The translations under genes were made by a program, and so were the position numbers. Positions 13,612 to 50,919 of a DNA stretch of 64,000 nucleotides are shown here, one piece after another. Origin of the DNA: Pristiophorus japonicus (taxonomy: Eukaryota); contig NC_091999.1 in the NCBI RefSeq assembly GCF_044704955.1, forward strand, positions 10,354,001 through 10,418,000. The letters run 5' to 3'. The first letter of the stretch is position 1. Every line of letters begins with the position of its first letter. A model generated the notes under the pieces. The model was not told where the DNA came from, ran no database searches, and saw only the letters and a list, made by a program, of their open reading frames with translations.

Positions 13612-13979
13612 ATGGGTGATAGACACAATGAAGTGACACTGTTTAATTTATTATCACTCTGGGCTCTTGCAGGACATTGTCGAGGAGACTCCGTTTCACA
13701 GACACCGGCTGTAACCAGAGTAAGTGAAGGAGACGATGTTCAGTTGCACTGTAATTACACAGCGACAAGCGGGGGCACTCCTAACCTATTCTGGTATCGT
13801 CAGTATCCCAGCGGATCAGTAGAATATCTGCTGCAGATTAACAAATATACCGAGCAAAATGAGAGACCTCCAGGGCACCGTTTTTCAGCGAAGCTGAATG
13901 ATTTGAGACGGACCGTCCAACTGAATATGTCTGAAACACAACTGACAGACTCCGCGGTGTATTATTGTGCACTGAGTCC
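13612..13979 (+). CDS. TCR alpha/delta V segment, intact V exon (13673-13979), leader uncertain
   Basis: GDSVSQTP..VQLHCNY..LFWYRQYP..DSAVYYCALSP; acceptor TTGCAG ending 13672; in-frame ATG at 13612. Confidence 0.88.
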
Positions 13980-14018
13980 CACAGAGACATGGTGCAGGGC
14001 TGGACCTGTACAACAACT
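13980..14018 (+). other. 23-RSS (non-consensus)
   Basis: CACAGAG-23-ACAACAACT directly after YYCALSP. Confidence 0.85.
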
Positions 14019-24197: not shown

Positions 24198-25182
24198 AAT
24201 GTGTTCCCTCTGCTGGTGTGAATGCTCCTGATGGCTATTTTATAACACGTAATTAGTACAATATGTTCCCGATGCTTGTGTGTATGCTCCTTATGGTCGT
24301 TGTAATAGGCAATAAGTAAAATGAGTTCCTTCTGGTGTGAATGCTCCTGATGGTTATTGTAATAGGTAATGAGTAAAGTCCGTTCCCCATGCTGGTGTGA
24401 ATGCTCCTGATGGCTATTTTATAATACGTAATTAGTACAATATGTTCCCGATGCTTGTGTGTATGCTCCTTATGGTCGTTGTAATAGGCAATAAGTAAAA
24501 TGAGTTCCTTCTGGTGTGAATGCTCCTGATGGTTATTGTAATAGGTAATGAGTAAAGTCCGTTCCCCATGCTGGTGTGAATGCTCCTGATGGCCATTGTA
24601 CAATGGATAATTATTAAAATGTGTTCCTCATGCTGGTGTGTATGCTCCTGATGGTCATTGTAATAGCTAATTAGTAAAATGAGTTCCCTCTGCTGGTATG
24701 TATGCTCCTTATGGTCATTGTAATAGGTAATCAGTAAAATGTGTTCCCTATGCTGGTGTTTATGCTCCTGATGGTCATTGTAATCGGTAATTAGTAAAAT
24801 GAGTTCCATATGCTGGTGTGTCTGCTGCTGATGGTCATTGTAATAGGTAATTAATAACATATGTTCCCTTCAAGTGTGAATGCTCCTGATGGTCATTGTA
24901 ATAGGTAATGAGTAAAATGTGTTCCCTCTACTGGTGTGAATGTACATGACATCCATTGTAATAGGCAATTCGTGAAATGCGTTCCCTCTGCTGGTGTGAA
25001 TGCACATGATATCCATTGTGATAGGTAATAAGTAAAATGTGTTCCCTATGAAGTATGAATGCTCATGATGGCCATTGGAAAATAGGAAATTCGTAAAATG
25101 TGTTCCCTATGCTGGTGTGTATGCTGCTGATGTCCATTGCAATAGGTATGTTGTGCTATATATTCCCTATGCTGGTGTGAAT
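24198..25182. repeat. Minisatellite, ~60-bp unit, ~16 copies, with an internal 179-bp higher-order duplication
   Basis: Consensus ~AATGTGTTCCCT(C/A)TGCTGGTGTGAATGCTCCTGATGGTCATTGTAATAGGTAATTAGTAA. Confidence 0.93.
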
Positions 25183-29508: not shown

Positions 29509-29961
29509 ATGTCGTACTGTCACCTCATCATATTGTGGCTCATGATTCTAGGTATGGCCATGCCTTTAACTGTTTGCACTAATATGAAGTGACTAGACAT
29601 TCTAAGTTATTAGACGTTCTATCTCTGTACTGTATTCAAAGTTAACTTTTATTTCAGGGGAGATTCAGGCAAATTCGGTGGCACAACCTCAGACTGCGCT
29701 CTCTATCGCTGAAGGAGATGGAGTGAAAATAGATTGCAGTTACACATCAAGCCACGCCAACCCAGATCTATATTGGTACAAGCAGCACACGAACCAGGCT
29801 CCGCGTTTTATTTTGTACCGGGATAACAACAACAAAGATGATGCAGATTTTGCTCAGGGAAGATTCGAGGCTGGCCAAGCAAACGCAGAAAATAAGTTTC
29901 CTTTAACAATCAATCGAGCGGAAATACAGGACTCTGCCGTTTATTTCTGTGGGTTACGCTA
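29509..29961 (+). CDS. Apparently functional TCR alpha/delta V segment (exons 29509-29551, 29658-29961)
   Basis: Leader MSYCHLIILWLMILG with phase-1 GT-AG intron; VKIDCSY..LYWYKQ..DSAVYFCGLR; no lesions seen. Confidence 0.95.
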
Positions 29962-30000
29962 CACAGTGTTGTAAAGCTCATCTCTCACTGTACAAAAACC
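29962..30000 (+). other. Consensus 23-RSS
   Basis: CACAGTG-23-ACAAAAACC. Confidence 0.97.
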
Positions 30001-41917: not shown

Positions 41918-42605
41918 GGTTTTTCTACAGCTGTCTCCGTGCTCCGCATCACCGTGCCTGTGATACCCACCACGTCCAGGTTTGTGAAGTCTCTTCATGC
42001 ACTACATCACTGTGTGTCTGTAATCCCCACTATGTTTAGGCTTTGGAACACTCTCGGTGCTCTGTATCATTGTGTGTCGGTAATCCCCAACATGTTCCGG
42101 TTTTAGTACGACTCTCCCTGCTCTCTCCTTCCCCATGCTCTCCCCCTCCCCTGGTTCTCCACGTTCCCGCCCCAGCTCTCCCCTCCCTGTGCTTCCCCCC
42201 TCCCCGTGCTCTCCCGTTCCACTTCCACCCCCTGCTCTCTCCCTCTCATTGCTCTCCCCCTCCTTCCTTCCCTCTCCATGCTCTTAACAGATAAGGGAAT
42301 AAGGGTTTATGGGGACCGGGCAAGGAAGTGGACCTGAGTCGAGGATCGGATCAGCCATGATCATTTTAAATGGCTGAGCAGACTCGAGGGGTCGTATAGC
42401 CTACGCTTGCTTCTATTTCTTATGTTCTCATGTTCCCTACATGCACTATATAAGTGCGTATCTGTAATTGCCACCATGATCAGGTTTTAGTGCGGCTCTC
42501 TCCCTGCTGTGTCACTCTGTGCCTGTAATCCCCAATATGTTCTGATTTAATATCGCTCTTTCCATGTTCTGTATGACTGCGTATCTGTAATCCCGACCAT
42601 GATCA
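41918..42605 (-). repeat. Tandem array of ~6 degenerate RSS-containing units (~61 bp), interrupted by a CT-rich/CR1-tail insert (~42120-42435)
   Basis: Each unit copies the heptamer-spacer-nonamer of the 42606-42644 RSS plus a ~21-nt linker. Confidence 0.85.
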
Positions 42606-42644
42606 GGTTTTTGTACGGCTCTCTCCCTGCTGTGTATCACTGTG
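42606..42644 (-). other. Consensus 23-RSS of the supporting V-delta
   Basis: CACAGTG-23-ACAAAAACC. Confidence 0.97.
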
Positions 42645-42950
42645 CTGTGTGCCGACTCGGTGCACAGTAATACACAGCGGAGTCACTCAGTTGCAGTTTT
42701 GCGATGTTTAACCGGCTGATTTTCTCGGCAGGATCGATCGTAGCAGAAATTCGGCCACCGGCAGCGTTTTCTTTATTCCCCTCTCCTGAAGTGTGTCTCT
42801 GAAGCAGGTATTTTGGAGGCTGACCTGGGGACTGACAGTACCAGTGTACTGTGTACTGACAGGCACCTGGATATTCACAGCTTAAAGTAATGGTGTCACC
42901 GACAGTAGAAGTTTGTAGAAGCGGCCTCTGGGACACCGTGGAACTGGAAG
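42645..42950 (-). CDS. NAR-TCR supporting TCR-delta V (leaderless)
   Basis: Phase-1 acceptor CCCTCCAG; SSTVSQRP..ITLSCEYPGACQYTVHWY..DSAVYYCA; extra CDR1 Cys; no in-phase leader nearby; downstream of the NAR J. Confidence 0.92.
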
Positions 42951-44109
42951 CTGGAGGGCAAAAATGGGAGAATGTTATTTATTTGGCTGCTATTTACCCG
43001 GGGACAGTGGTCAATCACAGAAAAATTCTGCCTCTCACGGTAATGCTAATTTCATTTGAAGCCTGCTGCAAATTTATTCACTCTCAATGTCGAAAGAATA
43101 AGAGGGGGAGTTGAGAACGTTTTTTAAGCAGCACGTTTTTATGAACTAGAATACACTGCCTGAAAGGTGCTGCAACCATATCCAATTGTAACTTTCAAAC
43201 TGGAATTGGATCACTACTGCAAAAGAAAACATTTGAAGCGCTATGGGGAATGAGCAAGGGGCTGGGATCAAGTGACAGCACCTTCACGAGCCGGCACCTA
43301 CACACTGGGTAGAATGACCTCCTGCTGTGCTGCATGAAGTTATGATTGCTAGTAACTTTATCTTTTTATTTTTCTTGGTGCAAGATAAACCTGAGGTAAC
43401 ATTGTAATTCTCCTCCTCACTTACAATGATGATTGACCCATAGGAGCACTGCAGCGTTATTCCACTGAGCACAGCAAGATCCATCAAGAAGCAGTGTGTT
43501 TCATCAGCACCGATTGAGACAAACTGAAATTTTGTGGGTCAAAGACCAAGCGTTCAATGTAACCTTACTCTTACCGGGAGCTCCTGCCTGCCTTTAACTA
43601 TGTTTCACTTGTCTTCCGTTAATTGGGCAAATATTACGCCATTTAAATTTAAGTTGAATTATTTCCAGTTAGTTTCATTTTATTTCCACATCTGAGTCGC
43701 TCACTTTGTGCTGTTTGTGGTTTTCTTCCAAGCCTGTGAACTTGTCCTAAAGTGACTCAGTTGTCGGTTGGTTTCAGTCTGTGCAGCTCCTGCAGTGGTT
43801 TTACTGTTACTCACCGGGAACTGGCTCTTCAAAAACTCTGACAATTGCAGTTCCTCAGGCCCATTGGATGATTAAATCCGATTTGCTCCGGGCGGAGTTT
43901 TCTCTGAGTTTTACTTTGTACAGAATCTGCAGAAAAGGAACATTCGACTCAACGAGTCTGCTTTGGTGTTTATACTCCACACGAGGCTCCTCCCACTCTA
44001 ATTACCTCTTCCCACTGTGAACCCCGTGTTCATCCATTCCTTTCTTATCGTGTGTTTTCCAAGCCTCGCCTTAATTGCATCAAAGCTATCTGCTCCAACT
44101 TGTCCTTGT

Positions 44110-47100
44110 AGAAATATAGGAACATAGACATTTACAGCGTAGAAGTAGACCATTTCGGACCATCGTGTCTGCACAGGCCGACAAAGAGCCGCATGGCCCT
44201 TGGTCAGCAGCCCTAAAGGTTACGTATAAACCAATGAACAATGACGTAGAGGGAAAGAAAACCCAGCCAAATCAATCAGCCTCACACAACTGCCACACCC
44301 CTTATACTGTACCATTCTACACTCCACCCCAACCGGAACCATGTGATCTCCTGGGAGAGGCAAAAACCAGAGAAAATCCCAAGGAGAAAAAATGTGCGAA
44401 AAATTTCTCTCGCGGCCATCCAGGCGATCGAAACTAGTCCAGGAGATCAAGTTGGCGGTATTCTTTTCACTGCAGTACTTACCATAATACCTGCGCCATC
44501 CAACAAAAGGTCATCCAGTCTAATCCCAATTACCAGCTCTTGGTCTGTAACCCTGCAGGTTATGGCACTTGAAGTGTCCATCCAACCATCTCTTAAAGGT
44601 GGTGAGGGTTTTTGCATCCACCACTCTTCCAGGCAACGAGTTCCAGATCCCCACAACCCATCTGTGTAAAGAAGCACCGCCTCAAATCCTCTCTAAATCT
44701 TCCACCAACCACCTTAAATCTATGCATCTCGTTATAGAACCCTCCCTCAATGGAAATAGGCCCTTACTATCTACTATGTCTCGGCCCCTCAATAATTTGT
44801 ACACCTCAATAAGGTCTCCACTCAACCTCCTCTGTTCCAATGAGAACTAACCCAGCCTATCCAATCTGTCCTCATATCGAAGATTCTCGGTTCCAGGCAG
44901 CATCCCAGTAAATCTCTTCACCCTCTCTACTGCAATCCGCCCTTCCTATAATACGGCAAATAGAACAACACATATTACTCCAGCTATGGCCGAACCAGAA
45001 TATTATACAATTTAAGCATAACCTCACTGCTCTTATGTTCTATGCCTCGGTCAATAAAGGCAAGCATTCCATATGTCTTCTTAACGACCTTATCCGCCTG
45101 GCCTGCTGCATTCACGGATCTGTGGACAAGCACTGCAAGGTCCCTTTGTTCATCTACTCTAATAAGTGACCTATCGCCTAATGTGTATCCACGTTCCTTA
45201 TTACCCCTCCGAAAGTGCATCACCTCACATGTCTGTGAATTAAATTCCATTTGCCACTACTCTTCCCACCTGACCAGTAGATTGATATCCTCCTGTAGCC
45301 CATGACTTTCCTCCTCATTATCAGCACACAGCCAATTTTAGTGTAGTCTGCAAATTTCTTAATCATACTCCCTGTGTTCAAATCTAATTCGTTGATATTC
45401 ACCAAAAAGCTAGGGAACCAGTACTGAGCCCTGCGGAACCCCACTGGAAACATCCTTCCAGTCACAAAAACATCCATCAATCATTACCCTTTGCTTCCTA
45501 CCTCCAAGCCAGTTTTGGATCCATCTTGCTACTTTGCCCTGTATCCCATGGGCGTTAACCTTCATGGCAAGTCTACCATGTGGGAGCTTATCAAAAGCCT
45601 TTCCAAAGTCCATATATACTAGTATGTAGGCACTACCATCGTCGATCCTCTTGATAACCTCCTCAGAAAACTCAATAAGGTTAGTCAAACACGATCTTCC
45701 CTTAACAACTCCGTGCTGACTCTCCCTAATTAATCCAAATGAGGATTCATCCTGTTTTTCAGATTTTTTACAATAGTTTTCCCACCACTGAGGTTAGGCT
45801 GACAGGCCTGTAATTAATCGACCTATCCCTTTTTTCCTTCTTGAACAGGGGTACTACATTAGCAATCCTCCAATCCTTCAGCACTATGCCCAGATCCAAA
45901 GATGAGTGGAAAAAATGGTCAAGGCCTCTGCTATTTCCTCCTTTACTTTGCTCAACAGCCTGGGATGCATTTCATCTGCTCCTCTGGACGTATCTAATTT
46001 CAAAACTGTTAAACCACTTAATACTTCCTCTCTCACTATATTGATTTCATCGAGAATATCACACTCCTCCTTAATAGCAGTATCTGCATTGTCCCTTTCA
46101 TTTCTGAAAGCAGAGCAAAGTATTCGCTAAGAACCAGACCAACATCTTTCGCCTCAACACAAAGATTACCATCATGGCCACTAATAGGCCATACCCTTTC
46201 TATAGTTACCCTCTTACTCTTCATATCTTAATCGAACAATTTAGAGTTTTCCTTTATTTTACTGCCCAAGAATTCCTCGTACTCTCTCTTAACATTTCTA
46301 ATAACTTTTTATTATTTCCTCTTAACTTTCTATATTCCTCTGAAGATTTTATAGTATTTAGCCGTTAGTTTCTGACATACACGTCCTTTTTTTCTTAATC
46401 GTTCCATGTAAGTCCCTAGACATCCAGCGGGGGGGGGGGGGGGGTGGGGGTTTGAATTAATTTTCCAAGCCTTTTTATTTCAGGGCACATGTTTGGCCTG
46501 AACCTTCCTGATCTCCTCCTTGAATGCCTCCCACTGTTCCGACACTGATTTATCCACAAGTACCTGTTTCCAGTCTACTATGGTCAAATCACTGCTTAAC
46601 TTAGAACATTTTTCTTTACACCAATTTGGAACTTTTATTCCAGGCCTATTCTTGTCCTTATCTATAACCAACTTGAATTTGACTGAATTATGGTCAGTGG
46701 CACCAAAGTGCTCTCCCACTAATACCCCTTTAACCTGCCCAGCTTCCTTCCCCAAAACTAAATCTAAGACCGCCTCCTCTCGTGTTGGGCTTGCTACATA
46801 CTGACTAAAAAGATCCTCTTCAACGCATTTCAAGAATTCCGCACCCTCTATACCCTTCACACTAAATTTGTTCCAATCATTTTTTGGATAGTTAAAATCC
46901 CCTACTATTACTATCCTATGGTTTTTGGACCTCATAGCAATTTGCCTACATGTTTCCTCCTCTATCTCTCTCCAACTGTTTGCGTCTATAATACAAGCCC
47001 AGCAGTGTGATCGCCCCTTTTTTAATTTTCAATTCGACCCATATGGCTTCGTTTGATGATCCCTCTAACATAGCATTCCTCCTCACCGCTGCAATAGTTT

Positions 47101-48450
47101 CTTTAATCAGTACCGCAACCCGTTCCCGTTTTTTACCCCCTCTCTATCTTGTCTGAAAATCATGTAGCCAGGAATATTGATCTGCCAAACCTGCCCCTCT
47201 TCCTGCCATGTCTCTATAATGGATATAAAGTCAAACACCAAGTGTCTACCTCTGCTCCTAGCTCATCCGCCTTACGCGCTATTGTAATGACTCAAGGATA
47301 TGCTTAATGTAAACTCACTCAGGTGCAAGCTGATCCATCTTTATTCCAGCACAATTGTGCCTGCGTGACAAAGATACCCAGCTTTTACTCGGGTGATTAA
47401 ACCTACAGCCCGATGTCCTCCGACCACAGTGCCCTGTGGTGTGTGATGACCCCCAAGCATTAATACATAACAGCTATACTCCTTGCATTAAATTATATAA
47501 CATTCAGCACAGGAAGTCCTCCTTCCTTACTACATACTAAGCCCTGCAACCTCTGTCTTACAGATTCGCTTTCTGAATTCTTGCTATCCAATTTCTGATT
47601 TAATTCCTTCCCTTTTGAATTCGTTCTCAGGTTTCCATTCCCATGCCAAGCTAGTTTAAACTCGCCCCAACTGCACTAGCAAAAGTCCCCGTGAGGATAT
47701 TAGTCCCGGCTCTGTTGTCATGCAAACCGTGCGGTTTGTACAAGTCCTATCTCCCCATAGAAGCGGTCCCAATGCCTCAAGAATTTCAAGCCCTCCCTCC
47801 AAGACCAACTTTCCAGACATGTGTTAATCCTCTTTAATCTTCTATGCTTGTACTCATTAGCACATGGCACCGGTAATAACCGGGGGATTACTAACTTTGA
47901 GGTCCAACCCTTCAATTTACTTCCTAGCTCCCTGAATTCTTACTCTAGGAACTCATTCCTCACTTTACCTATGTCCATTGGTCCCGATATGGACCTCGAC
48001 CCTCGCTGTTTACCAGACCCGGCAGGATGCCTTCCGTCTGTTCTGTGACAACCTTGACCCTGGCACCAGGGAGGCGCTAAACCATTCGGGACTCAAGTCT
48101 GCGGCCGCAGAAACGCCTCTCTGTCCCCCTAACTATAGAATCCCCTATCACTAGGGCTCTTTTGTTCTTCGTCCCTCCCAATTGTGTAGTTGAGCCACCC
48201 ATGGTGCCTTGGAATTAGCTCTGGCTGTACTCCCCAGAGGCACCATCGTCCTTACCGATACTTCGAAGTGAATATCGGTTTGCAAGCCAGATGAACTCAT
48301 GGGAGGATACCTGCGCTACCTGCCTAGCACATTTATTACATCTGCTGTTAACGCACTTCCCCTCAACCTGCACCCCTTTAAGCTGCGGGGTGACCATCTC
48401 CTGAAACGAGCTATCCACGTAGCTCCCAGCCTCATGGATGCACCGTATTG
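44110..48450 (-). mobile_element. Near full-length decayed CR1 LINE in the NAR J-to-V-delta intron
   Basis: VGDFNYP..VLDLVL..DHN (EN), MDFGKAFDKLPH, SGVPQGSVL, KFADYTK (RT), ORF1 remnants. Confidence 0.9.
47283..47472 (-). mobile_element. Solo LTR (190 bp) with 5-bp TSD
   Basis: TGTAATG...CATAACA flanked on both sides by GCTAT; AATAAA on minus at ~47340-47345; interrupts the CR1. Confidence 0.85.
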
Positions 48451-49613
48451 ACTCCACCCGCTGCTCCAGATCCGAAATGGGGCAGCGAGTTCCACATTCT
48501 GAATCATCTCTGTGTAAATAAATTCTTCCTAATGTCTTTATTTGTTCTGTTAGTGACTATCTTATATTTGTGGCCCATTATCCTGGCCTCACCCATAATG
48601 GAAACAGTTTCTGTACGTGCATCCTATCGAACCCTTCATAATTTTAATAAACTATTTCAGTTCTGCTCGTTTTCTTTTCTTCTCCAAAGAAAAGAGCTCC
48701 CGCCTGTTCAATATTTCCAGCAATGTGCGGAATTCTGCTGCGGTCTTTTTTCAGGGGTGTAGAATTCCAAAGCGGAGAGAAGGGCTGGAGCCAAATCACA
48801 GCCCGTTCCTCCAGGAAAGTTCACTCCCCTGGTGTCAGGTTGTGATTTGAACGTCCCAGAGACCGTTATCTCTACACAGCCGCCTGGCCGGTGAAGTCAG
48901 ATATTTCTCTCCTTTTTGCTGCACATATCGGACCGGCCTCTGCTAATATCGGTCGGGCCGGTGCATGTATTGAACCTGCGGCAGCAGATATAGGACTGGC
49001 CGCCACATATAACAGACAGGCCGCTGCAGATAGAGCATCGCCGCTGCATTTAACGTCCGGGCCGATACAAGTATTGGACAGGTCGCTGAATTGTTGGTTT
49101 CACTCTCCCATTACCTGATTCACTCAGCCCGACTCTGAGAGCTATCTCCTGCCCATGAGAAAGCTCTGTGCATGCCCCCCTCACCCACCCCACACCCACC
49201 CCACCCACCACCACGGCTCCCAGGGAGAGCTTTAGCTCCCTCAGTCACAGAGAGCGGAGTCCAGTGTGTCGACAATCTGCGCTCAATTACTTCAACTGCG
49301 GATCAGAGAAAGAGAGTATCTGGATCATTCCTTGGATATCCTGAGGACCCCGTTGAACCAATGATGCAGATCGGGGTCCGACCACTACAGCCCGCTAGCT
49401 GCATGGGAGGGGGGGTCTTACACCTCCAATATCCGGACCCGAGCCCCACCCCTGTTCATATTTAACCCCGGAAAAATGCATTGGAATGACTCTATTAGGA
49501 AACAGCTCTGTTTTACTTCGAAAGAAATTGAGGTGATATTGATCACAATACTAAAGTGACGGTGAATAGTAACCTGGAAAGTCTGTAACACGGTCTGGTT
49601 TTGAGTTACTTAC

Positions 49614-49668
49614 CGGCTGTGACAGTCACCACAGTTCCGGATCCATCCACAGTATCATAATAGTCCAC
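49614..49668 (-). CDS. NAR-TCR J segment
   Basis: VDYYDTVDGSGTVVTVTA + G/GTAAGT donor; RSS at 49669-49707 (CACCGTG-23-ATAAGAACC read on plus). Confidence 0.92.
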
Positions 49669-50051
49669 CACCGTGACACCACTCTCAGTCACTCCGACAT
49701 AAGAACCACCGACACCTCAATCTACCGGCCACACAACACCAGACATTAGGCGCTGCTCAATAATGATCCAATGACCAATAATCAAAATTTGTTTCCCACA
49801 GTCCCCGTCGGTTCAATCTGTTCTTTGTGAGATTCTGACCTCCTCGTAAAATAGTCCGGGAACATGGGCCGGCGTTAAAGGCTTCCTATAAATGGAGAAA
49901 ATATCAGAGAAAGATAATCGAAAGCAGGAATTACACTGAAATTAAACCAGATTACAGCGACAATATGGTCAAACCTACAATTCAAGTTCCGGGCCCGGCG
50001 AATTCATGCTTTAATTGTATATAGGTTTTTGCTCAGGGCTCTGCCACTGTG

Positions 50052-50064
50052 TTGCTCCAGTCAA
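50052..50064 (-). CDS. NAR-TCR D segment (13 nt, TTGACTGGAGCAA)
   Basis: 3' RSS CACAGTG-12-GCAAAAACC (50024-50051); 5' RSS CACACTG-12-ATAAATTCT (50065-50092). Confidence 0.88.
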
Positions 50065-50404
50065 CACACTGTTTCACGTCAGCATAAATTCTCTCAGTAA
50101 TCGGTGAGATGTTTGTACATTAGGGACGCAGCAGTTTCGACGGTTCCCGGTTCCAGCTGTTAGAGCAGGATCCCACCTGGTGTTCTGGATTTGCAACAGC
50201 GATCAGTCATTCCAAATTACAATTCATTGACACCAATCCCGGGAAAGACATCACCGCCCGCACACACTCAGCATTTACAAAACTCAAGCTGTTAACTGCA
50301 ATAATCCAATCTGATTATAAACTCGACTGTGGGGCAGATAGTGCGAGGTGGAACTCAGTGTTTAATCCCGCTTTTCACTAGTTTCTGTCAAAATCTGCAG
50401 TGAG

Positions 50405-50442
50405 AGTTTTTGTATCGCGGGAAACCAAGGTCTATCACTGTG
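50405..50442 (-). other. 22-spacer RSS of the NAR-TCR V
   Basis: CACAGTG-22-ACAAAAACT. Confidence 0.95.
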
Positions 50443-50919
50443 TATTATATTTGTACTGAGCTTTACAGTAATAGATGGCGCTGTCTTCAACTCGCACATC
50501 TCCAATTTCCAGCCAAAATGTCTTTTCAGCCTCATTCGTCCTCATAACAAATCGCTCGTCGATCGAGATCCGTTCCCTCTCTGTCCCGGTCTTGGTTTGT
50601 CTGAAGAATTCCCCACGAGTTAAAGGACGAGCGAAAAATCCACCATAGAAAACGCAGGTGATGGTGAGAGACTGACACTCCTGCCTGGTCACCGCTGGCG
50701 GGGTTTGTACCACTGACTGACTGAAATAAGCTGGAAATTAAACGGAGAGTGTTTAATGGAACATCTGAGTCGAACCACACAGCGGGGCTAAAACCCAGAT
50801 AAAGTCTGTAATTCGGAAGGACACGGCAGCTTTATATTAAATCCACACAATGTCTATTTGACTGAACGGTACTCACGGGGGAAACAGATATACAGGGCGA
50901 AAACAAGCAGGATTCCCAT
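50443..50919 (-). CDS. NAR-TCR V segment (IgNAR-like; exons 50877-50919, 50443-50730)
   Basis: Leader MGILLVFALYICFP/GTGAGT; VVQTPPAVTRQECQSLTITC..FFRQ..ERISIDERF..EDSAIYYCKA; shortened CDR2 region and YYCKA as in VNAR; extra FR1 Cys. Confidence 0.95.

Follow-up and report, generated by a model that had tools for sequence, protein, structure and literature searches.

A highly probable NAR-TCR cassette of the germ line, in the V region of the TCR alpha/delta locus of a shark

Organization of the cassette

The element described here is a cassette of rearranging gene segments in the genome of the shark Pristiophorus japonicus. It lies at positions 42606 to 50919 of the window, as we call the whole analysed stretch of 64,000 nucleotides (C23:10354001-10418000), and all of its parts are on the minus strand. 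Parts, frames, splice phases, spacers and orientation were observed, and they make it highly probable that this is a germ-line NAR-TCR cassette within the V region of the alpha/delta locus of the shark T-cell receptor (TCR). The system is already known and this cassette adds one further copy, numbered c1 here; related regions are numbered c2 to c12.

Read along the minus strand, the cassette starts with the leader exon of the NAR-TCR V (50877..50919; 43 nt, phase 1, donor GTGAGT), which has homologues among the leaders of other chains. The VNAR-like V exon (50443..50730) is open; it carries a Cys in the loop between strands A' and B (QECQ), has EFFRQ in place of the core Trp and is without the second complementarity-determining region (CDR2). 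Its recombination signal sequence (RSS; 50405..50442) has a perfect heptamer, one nonamer mismatch and a 22-nt spacer, a length likewise found in the seven paralogues where it was scored. The D segment (50052..50064; 13 nt) is flanked on both sides by signals with 12-nt spacers (12-RSS). The 3' one (50024..50051) has a single mismatch; the 5' one (50065..50092) has the heptamer CACACTG and a nonamer with four mismatches, including a position-6 change private to this copy, and it escaped our RSS scan, whose cut-off was at most three mismatches. The J segment (49614..49668) has a DGSG motif and a phase-1 donor GTAAGT, and its 23-RSS (49669..49707), which reads CACCGTG on the plus strand, has one heptamer and two nonamer mismatches. 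This cluster of V, D and J spans about 1.3 kb.

An intron of 6,663 nt (42951..49613), which contains a broken long interspersed nuclear element (reverse transcriptase at 45413-45793, endonuclease at 46483-47028), separates J from a leaderless supporting V-delta (42645..42950), and the phase-1 acceptor at its end matches the phase of the J donor. The supporting V is open, with a Cys in CDR1 (GACQ), an extra Cys in the second framework region (WYC) and a Pro after YYCA, and is followed by a perfect 23-RSS (42606..42644). Behind this signal lies an array of RSS-derived repeats in units of 61-62 bp (41918..42605), and within the intron there is a 46-nt piece (43459..43504), without a GT donor and with an in-frame stop, that may be a fossil leader exon belonging to the supporting V. 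The initial annotation had named the V with its 22-RSS, the D with 12-RSS on either side, the J with its 23-RSS, the match of phase 1, the 6.66-kb intron and the perfect 23-RSS of the supporting V, and each was found on the minus strand where it had been placed.

The arrangement is beyond chance, because the same order of parts is repeated in ten paralogous regions (67-98% DNA identity) and RSS-like sites are sparse: the same scan gave only 12 with spacers of 22-24 nt on both strands of the 64 kb. Ten other V-like pieces are present in the window, eight of them broken and two open, in agreement with the earlier description of the neighbourhood as mostly dead V genes.

The locus and the paralogous copies

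Searched against the genome, the NAR V gave 19 matches, 11 of them on C23 at 9.97-11.34 Mb (59-100% identity) and the other eight IgNAR-like (35-41%). Among the 11 NAR-TCR V copies, four (c1, c2, c3 and c5) have an open leader, V, J and supporting V and seven are broken; copies lie in both orientations across the locus, c3 and c5 being inverted. These figures indicate rapid birth and death in the locus. A supporting V is paired with the NAR V in 7/11 copies, and an eighth copy shows its deletion.

The segments needed to complete a delta chain lie about 660 kb downstream of the cassette, within C23:9.72-9.74 Mb. A C exon is found at C23:9722495-9722764, on the same strand as the cassette, preceded by nine J motifs with 12-type signals and by a D (C23:9737185-9737202), also on this strand, with 12/23 RSS; it was the one D in the 100 kb fetched around the C exon. 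A second C lies 143 kb further on. From this D and from the second C we infer that the first C is delta rather than alpha. Just upstream of D-delta there are immunoglobulin heavy chain (IgH)-like, TAILV-like V genes; D-delta, the nine J motifs and these V genes lie within C23:9727600-9760000.

Proposed assembly

In the proposed scheme two separate joins would take place. In the first, RAG would assemble NAR V, D and J locally, over 1.3 kb, in a 22/12-12/23 pattern like that of the Ig heavy chain. In the second, the 23-RSS of the supporting V would be joined to the 5' 12-RSS of D-delta, deleting about 660 kb, and then to a J-delta; the supporting V can reach D-delta by deletion because it shares its orientation with the D-delta, J and C-delta found downstream of it. 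Splicing of the leader, the NAR VDJ, the supporting VDJ and C-delta would then give a delta chain of three domains, on top of which the VNAR-like domain would stand unpaired. The parts, frames, phases, spacer compatibility and orientation in this scheme come from the present analysis; the double rearrangement and the unpaired top domain come from the literature.

Identity as NAR-TCR

The papers cited here are represented by the portions of their text that were available, and all statements about them are limited to these portions. The hallmarks given for NAR-TCR are an IgNAR-related V with a leader, an a-b loop Cys and no Trp of the WYRK type, and a leaderless V-delta with a CDR1 Cys (PMC1845163); it is known to rearrange twice and to carry an unpaired domain on top (PMC5931798, PMC3457774, PMC6795676, PMC12227049, PMC3149040). 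All the published sequence hallmarks were found in the cassette, which is therefore assigned to this known system. Its leader is a typical 43-nt phase-1 exon, with two private changes, and the two joins are provided for by the 22/12-12/23 signals of the cassette and by the compatibility of the supporting V 23-RSS with the 5' 12-RSS of D-delta; the D 5' nonamer is poor.

The upstream V aligns over its full length with many solved VNAR chains (best single-domain E value 4e-14). Among 87 candidates, 18 longer homologues were obtained from sharks and a sawfish, most of them gene models. In 16 of the 18 a single chain contains NAR V, a J with the DGxG motif and supporting V, and the joins agree with those predicted for the cassette. 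The A'-B Cys (QECQ), the CDR1 Cys (GACQ) and the loss of the Trp (FF of EFFRQ) are invariant in 17/17 aligned homologues. In one homologous chain, P0013, the order is NAR V, J, supporting V, J and C; the junctions after both V domains do not look germ-line, and the chain runs into C-delta. Judged from this order and these junctions, P0013 is the expected mature form, but of a relative. The proteins of Pristiophorus japonicus itself that were matched (n=2) are identical to paralogues c2 and c3 over runs of 129 and 104 residues. With the hallmarks described in PMC1845163, the downstream D-delta, J and C-delta in the same orientation and a chain such as P0013, the naming of the cassette as NAR-TCR in the initial annotation is borne out.

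The predicted fold of a paralogous protein, P0002, consists of two Ig domains (predicted local distance difference test 76.9, predicted template modelling score 0.58), with the Cys of QECQ between strands A' and B and the extra Cys residues in the expected loops; no distances are given by the model. A prediction of the complex of the two V domains scored 0.03 and weighs neither way. In the available text of PMC1845163 a disulfide linking both extra Cys residues is described as putative, and we likewise infer that they form an inter-domain bond.

The supporting V and its leaderless state

The Cys of WYC (window 42834-42836 region) is a third non-canonical Cys in the supporting V, found in c1-c5 and c9 of this genome; in 15/15 homologues from other species the position is R, S or T. 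It is, on this alignment, a lineage-specific third extra Cys. Its reading as a lesion private to this copy was rejected, as it is common to c1-c5 and c9.

No conserved intact leader was found before the supporting V; the 6,663-nt intron contains two weak candidates, neither conserved as an exon. The 46-nt piece at 43504-43459 encodes a hydrophobic core and lacks a GT donor in 8/8 copies; a leader length of 46 nt was also found in 15/22 control V genes, and the likeness of the piece to seven real leaders is weak (12-21 of 46 bases). It is possibly the fossil leader of the supporting V, and a dead leader, if true, would illustrate the way in which a supporting domain arose from an ordinary V-delta. 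The initial annotation had given two observations as speaking against its reading, a J spliced to an IgNAR constant exon and a supporting V expressed only with a leader of its own. Neither was encountered: the cassette yielded no constant exon, and the only leader-like exon ahead of the supporting V is dead in 8/8 copies.

The array, the possible dead leader exon, the Cys of WYC and a paralogue with an apparent germ-line join of V to D are points beyond the initial annotation.

Is this copy in use?

The initial annotation had called the cassette complete and apparently functional. As regards the frames this holds, since no stop, frameshift or lost splice site is present in any of the five segments; function is not established, given a private lesion in the D 5' nonamer and private changes in the leader. 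The odds that this copy is used are about even, and it would probably be used less often than c3 and c5, because its D 5' nonamer is weakened. The strongest alternative, with a chance somewhat below even, is that it is a young pseudogene with open frames, rarely rearranged or with an unprocessed product, and that c3 and c5 carry the function.

Several observations count against use of this copy. Position 6 of the D 5' nonamer is T here and A in the nine paralogues with a D, and the base at this position is linked to poor function in RAG assays (PMC12711392, section 23, as far as that text was available). The assays are mammalian, however, and since the D 5' nonamer is weak in every paralogue too, it may be tolerated in sharks. 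Two Tyr residues of the leader (C10Y and S16Y) are private to this copy. Signal peptides follow the -3/-1 rule, and one of these residues stands at the likely -3 site, where none of 13 aligned homologues has Tyr. T100I falls at a column that is invariant in 15/15 homologues from other species, the Pro after YYCA in the supporting V is common only to this copy and c2, and 7/11 NAR-TCR copies of the locus are already broken. The divergence of the V exon from c2 (14/287) resembles the non-coding divergence (37/828). On the branch to this copy there are eight replacement and three silent changes, near the 3.3:1 ratio of sites, with counts too small to test. Finally, none of the 18 longer homologues or of two further protein matches is this copy.

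Against the young pseudogene stand the freedom of all five segments from stops, frameshifts and lost splice sites, and the state of the signals, 3/5 of which have no or one mismatch. Pairwise dN/dS among the four open copies is 0.41-0.74 in 6/6 pairs, and 0.51 between this copy and c2. Residues unseen in 15 homologues from other species number 20 in this copy and 16, 17 and 16 in c2, c3 and c5, so that this copy is not much worse than the other open ones. The J heptamer CACCGTG was also considered as a weak signal; this was rejected, since position 4 hardly matters and CACCGTG is a well-used heptamer in the data available from PMC9723617.

The repeat array behind the supporting V

Each unit of the array consists of an RSS and about 22 nt (61-62 bp in all), with heptamers at about 42581, 42521, 42137, 42074, 42014 and 41956; a short repeat and an insert rich in GA interrupt the array (41918-42605), which came to light through blastn and alignment and was missed by Tandem Repeats Finder. 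The unit at 41956-41918 is a near-consensus spare 23-RSS, with a heptamer among the best in the accessible part of PMC9723617; the unit at 42521 has a disfavoured purine at heptamer position 6. Counting the V's own RSS, there are 7 units here, 8 in c2, 11 in c3, 4 in c4, 11 in c5, 8 in c9 and 2 in the partial V c12, all with scores of at least 50 against a shuffle maximum of 43; one c4 match at 38 was omitted.

The array is most likely an old minisatellite derived from a duplicated RSS and decaying neutrally, with a few units still cleavable that would yield non-productive joins, because its units are mostly degenerate, its copy number varies and in c11, an old paralogue, the same flank comes after just one RSS. 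In c1-c5 and c9 the heptamer or the nonamer of most units is broken or the spacer is short, and between 2 and 11 units are present in the seven regions examined.

A working element is an unlikely alternative, with a chance on the order of one in eight. A spare 23-RSS would capture RAG or D-delta first, pull the cassette to D-J and keep the RSS of the V itself free for another join downstream, or it would act as a decoy limiting NAR-TCR use; the nine J-delta with 12-type signals would permit such second joins. The array would then be an old, dedicated set of spare signals, serving as RAG decoys or staging sites that set the frequency and number of assembly tries, at that same low probability. 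If RAG does use it, repeated RSS on a doubly rearranging receptor would form an unusual layer of V(D)J control.

A search of the genome with 196 bases of the array placed 13/13 matches at six supporting-V loci and nowhere else, which speaks for a working element, but these loci inherit one ancestral array and the counts are thus not independent. An extra 23-RSS with at most two mismatches lies behind 5/8 supporting-V regions and 0/22 control V genes, the controls being drawn from 150 scored V matches; with three mismatches, a spare site is found in 4/22 controls too. In c3 and c5 there is a second perfect RSS at +185, but it has decayed in c1, c2 and c9. The tails of whale-shark and zebra-shark gene models fit the second unit better than any of the 22 controls (7 mismatches against 10, and 5 against 9), which suggests that the RSS duplication is old; the carpet-shark second unit, read back from protein, is, however, without CAC. 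Furthermore, read-through of the V ends at a stop that precedes every intact spare RSS. A join at one of the spare signals would therefore be non-productive at first, yet the RSS of the V itself would still be there for a second one.

A literature search for tandem or duplicated RSS at these genes, which did not include the primary NAR-TCR papers, returned no paper. Three ordinary V genes have a second RSS-like site (three mismatches) about 100-125 bp behind their own, possibly from independent duplications. Paralogue c10 has lost its supporting V along with the first part of the array, and the flanks of this deletion are joined.

Comparison with known receptors

The NAR-TCR of nurse shark and elephant shark was reportedly described by Criscitiello et al. 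2006, and the cassette is a further genomic example of a receptor known since that year. As here, the available accounts of it (PMC1845163, PMC5931798, PMC12227049) describe a VNAR-like V that has a leader and a Cys in the a-b loop but lacks the Trp of WYRK, a V-delta that is leaderless and bears a Cys in CDR1, and segments for two rearrangements, all placed in the TCR-delta locus. The third Cys of WYC, the RSS-derived array, the possible fossil leader and the weakened D signal of this copy set the cassette apart from NAR-TCR as described in these portions. The ligands of NAR-TCR are still unknown (PMC7615758, in its available part).

TCR-mu of marsupials and monotremes (PMC3457774 and PMC7615758, in excerpt) also has three extracellular domains, with an unpaired antibody-like V on a supporting V, but it is of independent origin from a VH-like V, has its own locus, and in marsupials its supporting V is germ-line joined. 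TAILV and the trans-rearrangements between IgH-V and TCR-delta likewise place an antibody-type V on C-delta in the same locus; they differ in having one V domain, one rearrangement and an IgM- or IgW-like V.

These chimeras suggest another fate for the cassette, for which we see little prospect: the NAR V of this copy, its own D being weakened, would join D-delta directly (22 x 12), with deletion of the supporting V, and give a chain of two domains, VNAR and C-delta. The 12/23 rule permits such a join, joins of IgH-V to TCR-delta are described in sharks (PMC12227049 and PMC3457774, in the parts available), and IgH-like V genes adjoin D-delta in this locus. On the other hand, the local D is 0.4 kb away and D-delta 667 kb, the A'-B Cys would be left unpaired in the product, and a NAR V straight on C-delta is seen in 0/18 longer homologues.

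An IgNAR cluster shares with the cassette the V fold without CDR2, a J without Trp and the layout of the V-D-J cluster. IgNAR clusters have three D, and the cassette differs from them in its single D, in having no constant exons found, in a J predicted to splice to a TCR V and in the loss of the core Trp. That the cassette is an IgNAR V-D-J cluster lying by chance near an unrelated V-delta is thus barely credible in spite of the VNAR likeness of its V and of IgH clusters on the same contig, as two TCR C queries detected no constant exon either in the window or in the 12 cassette regions (best E value 0.31), Pfam gave no constant domain in nine flanking open reading frames (9/17 of those without a V), the eight IgNAR-like V genes of the genome reach only 35-41% identity and all lack an A'-B Cys at the position seen here, and the pairing with a supporting V is repeated in 7/11 copies, with a deletion in the eighth. 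A genome-wide search for C1-set domains, in which 150 of 970 candidates were scored, omitted even C-delta and is uninformative on nearby C exons.

Further observations in the window and the genome

Two open inverted V genes lie on the plus strand (window 13681-14018 and 29509-30000), the second with a leader and a perfect 23-RSS, and a 60-bp tandem repeat of 16 copies (window 24198-25182) directly precedes a broken V. Across the locus many V genes have RSS spacers of 22 or 24 nt.

In paralogue c11 (C23 about 9,973,450), a pseudogene, the NAR V is followed directly by a short piece resembling a D and by the 3' 12-RSS of the D, with the V-RSS and the interval between V and D missing. This has the look of a V-D join made in the germ line, the alternative being a deletion between two identical heptamers. 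Germ-line RAG activity is known for shark Ig genes, and c11, if truly V-D joined, would extend it to NAR-TCR. Elsewhere on the contig, an IgNAR-like V at C23:64674802-64675050 continues in frame through CDR3 into a J motif without RSS, apparently a germ-line joined VDJ. In another pseudogene, paralogue c8, the D and its signals are duplicated in tandem, 427 bp apart.

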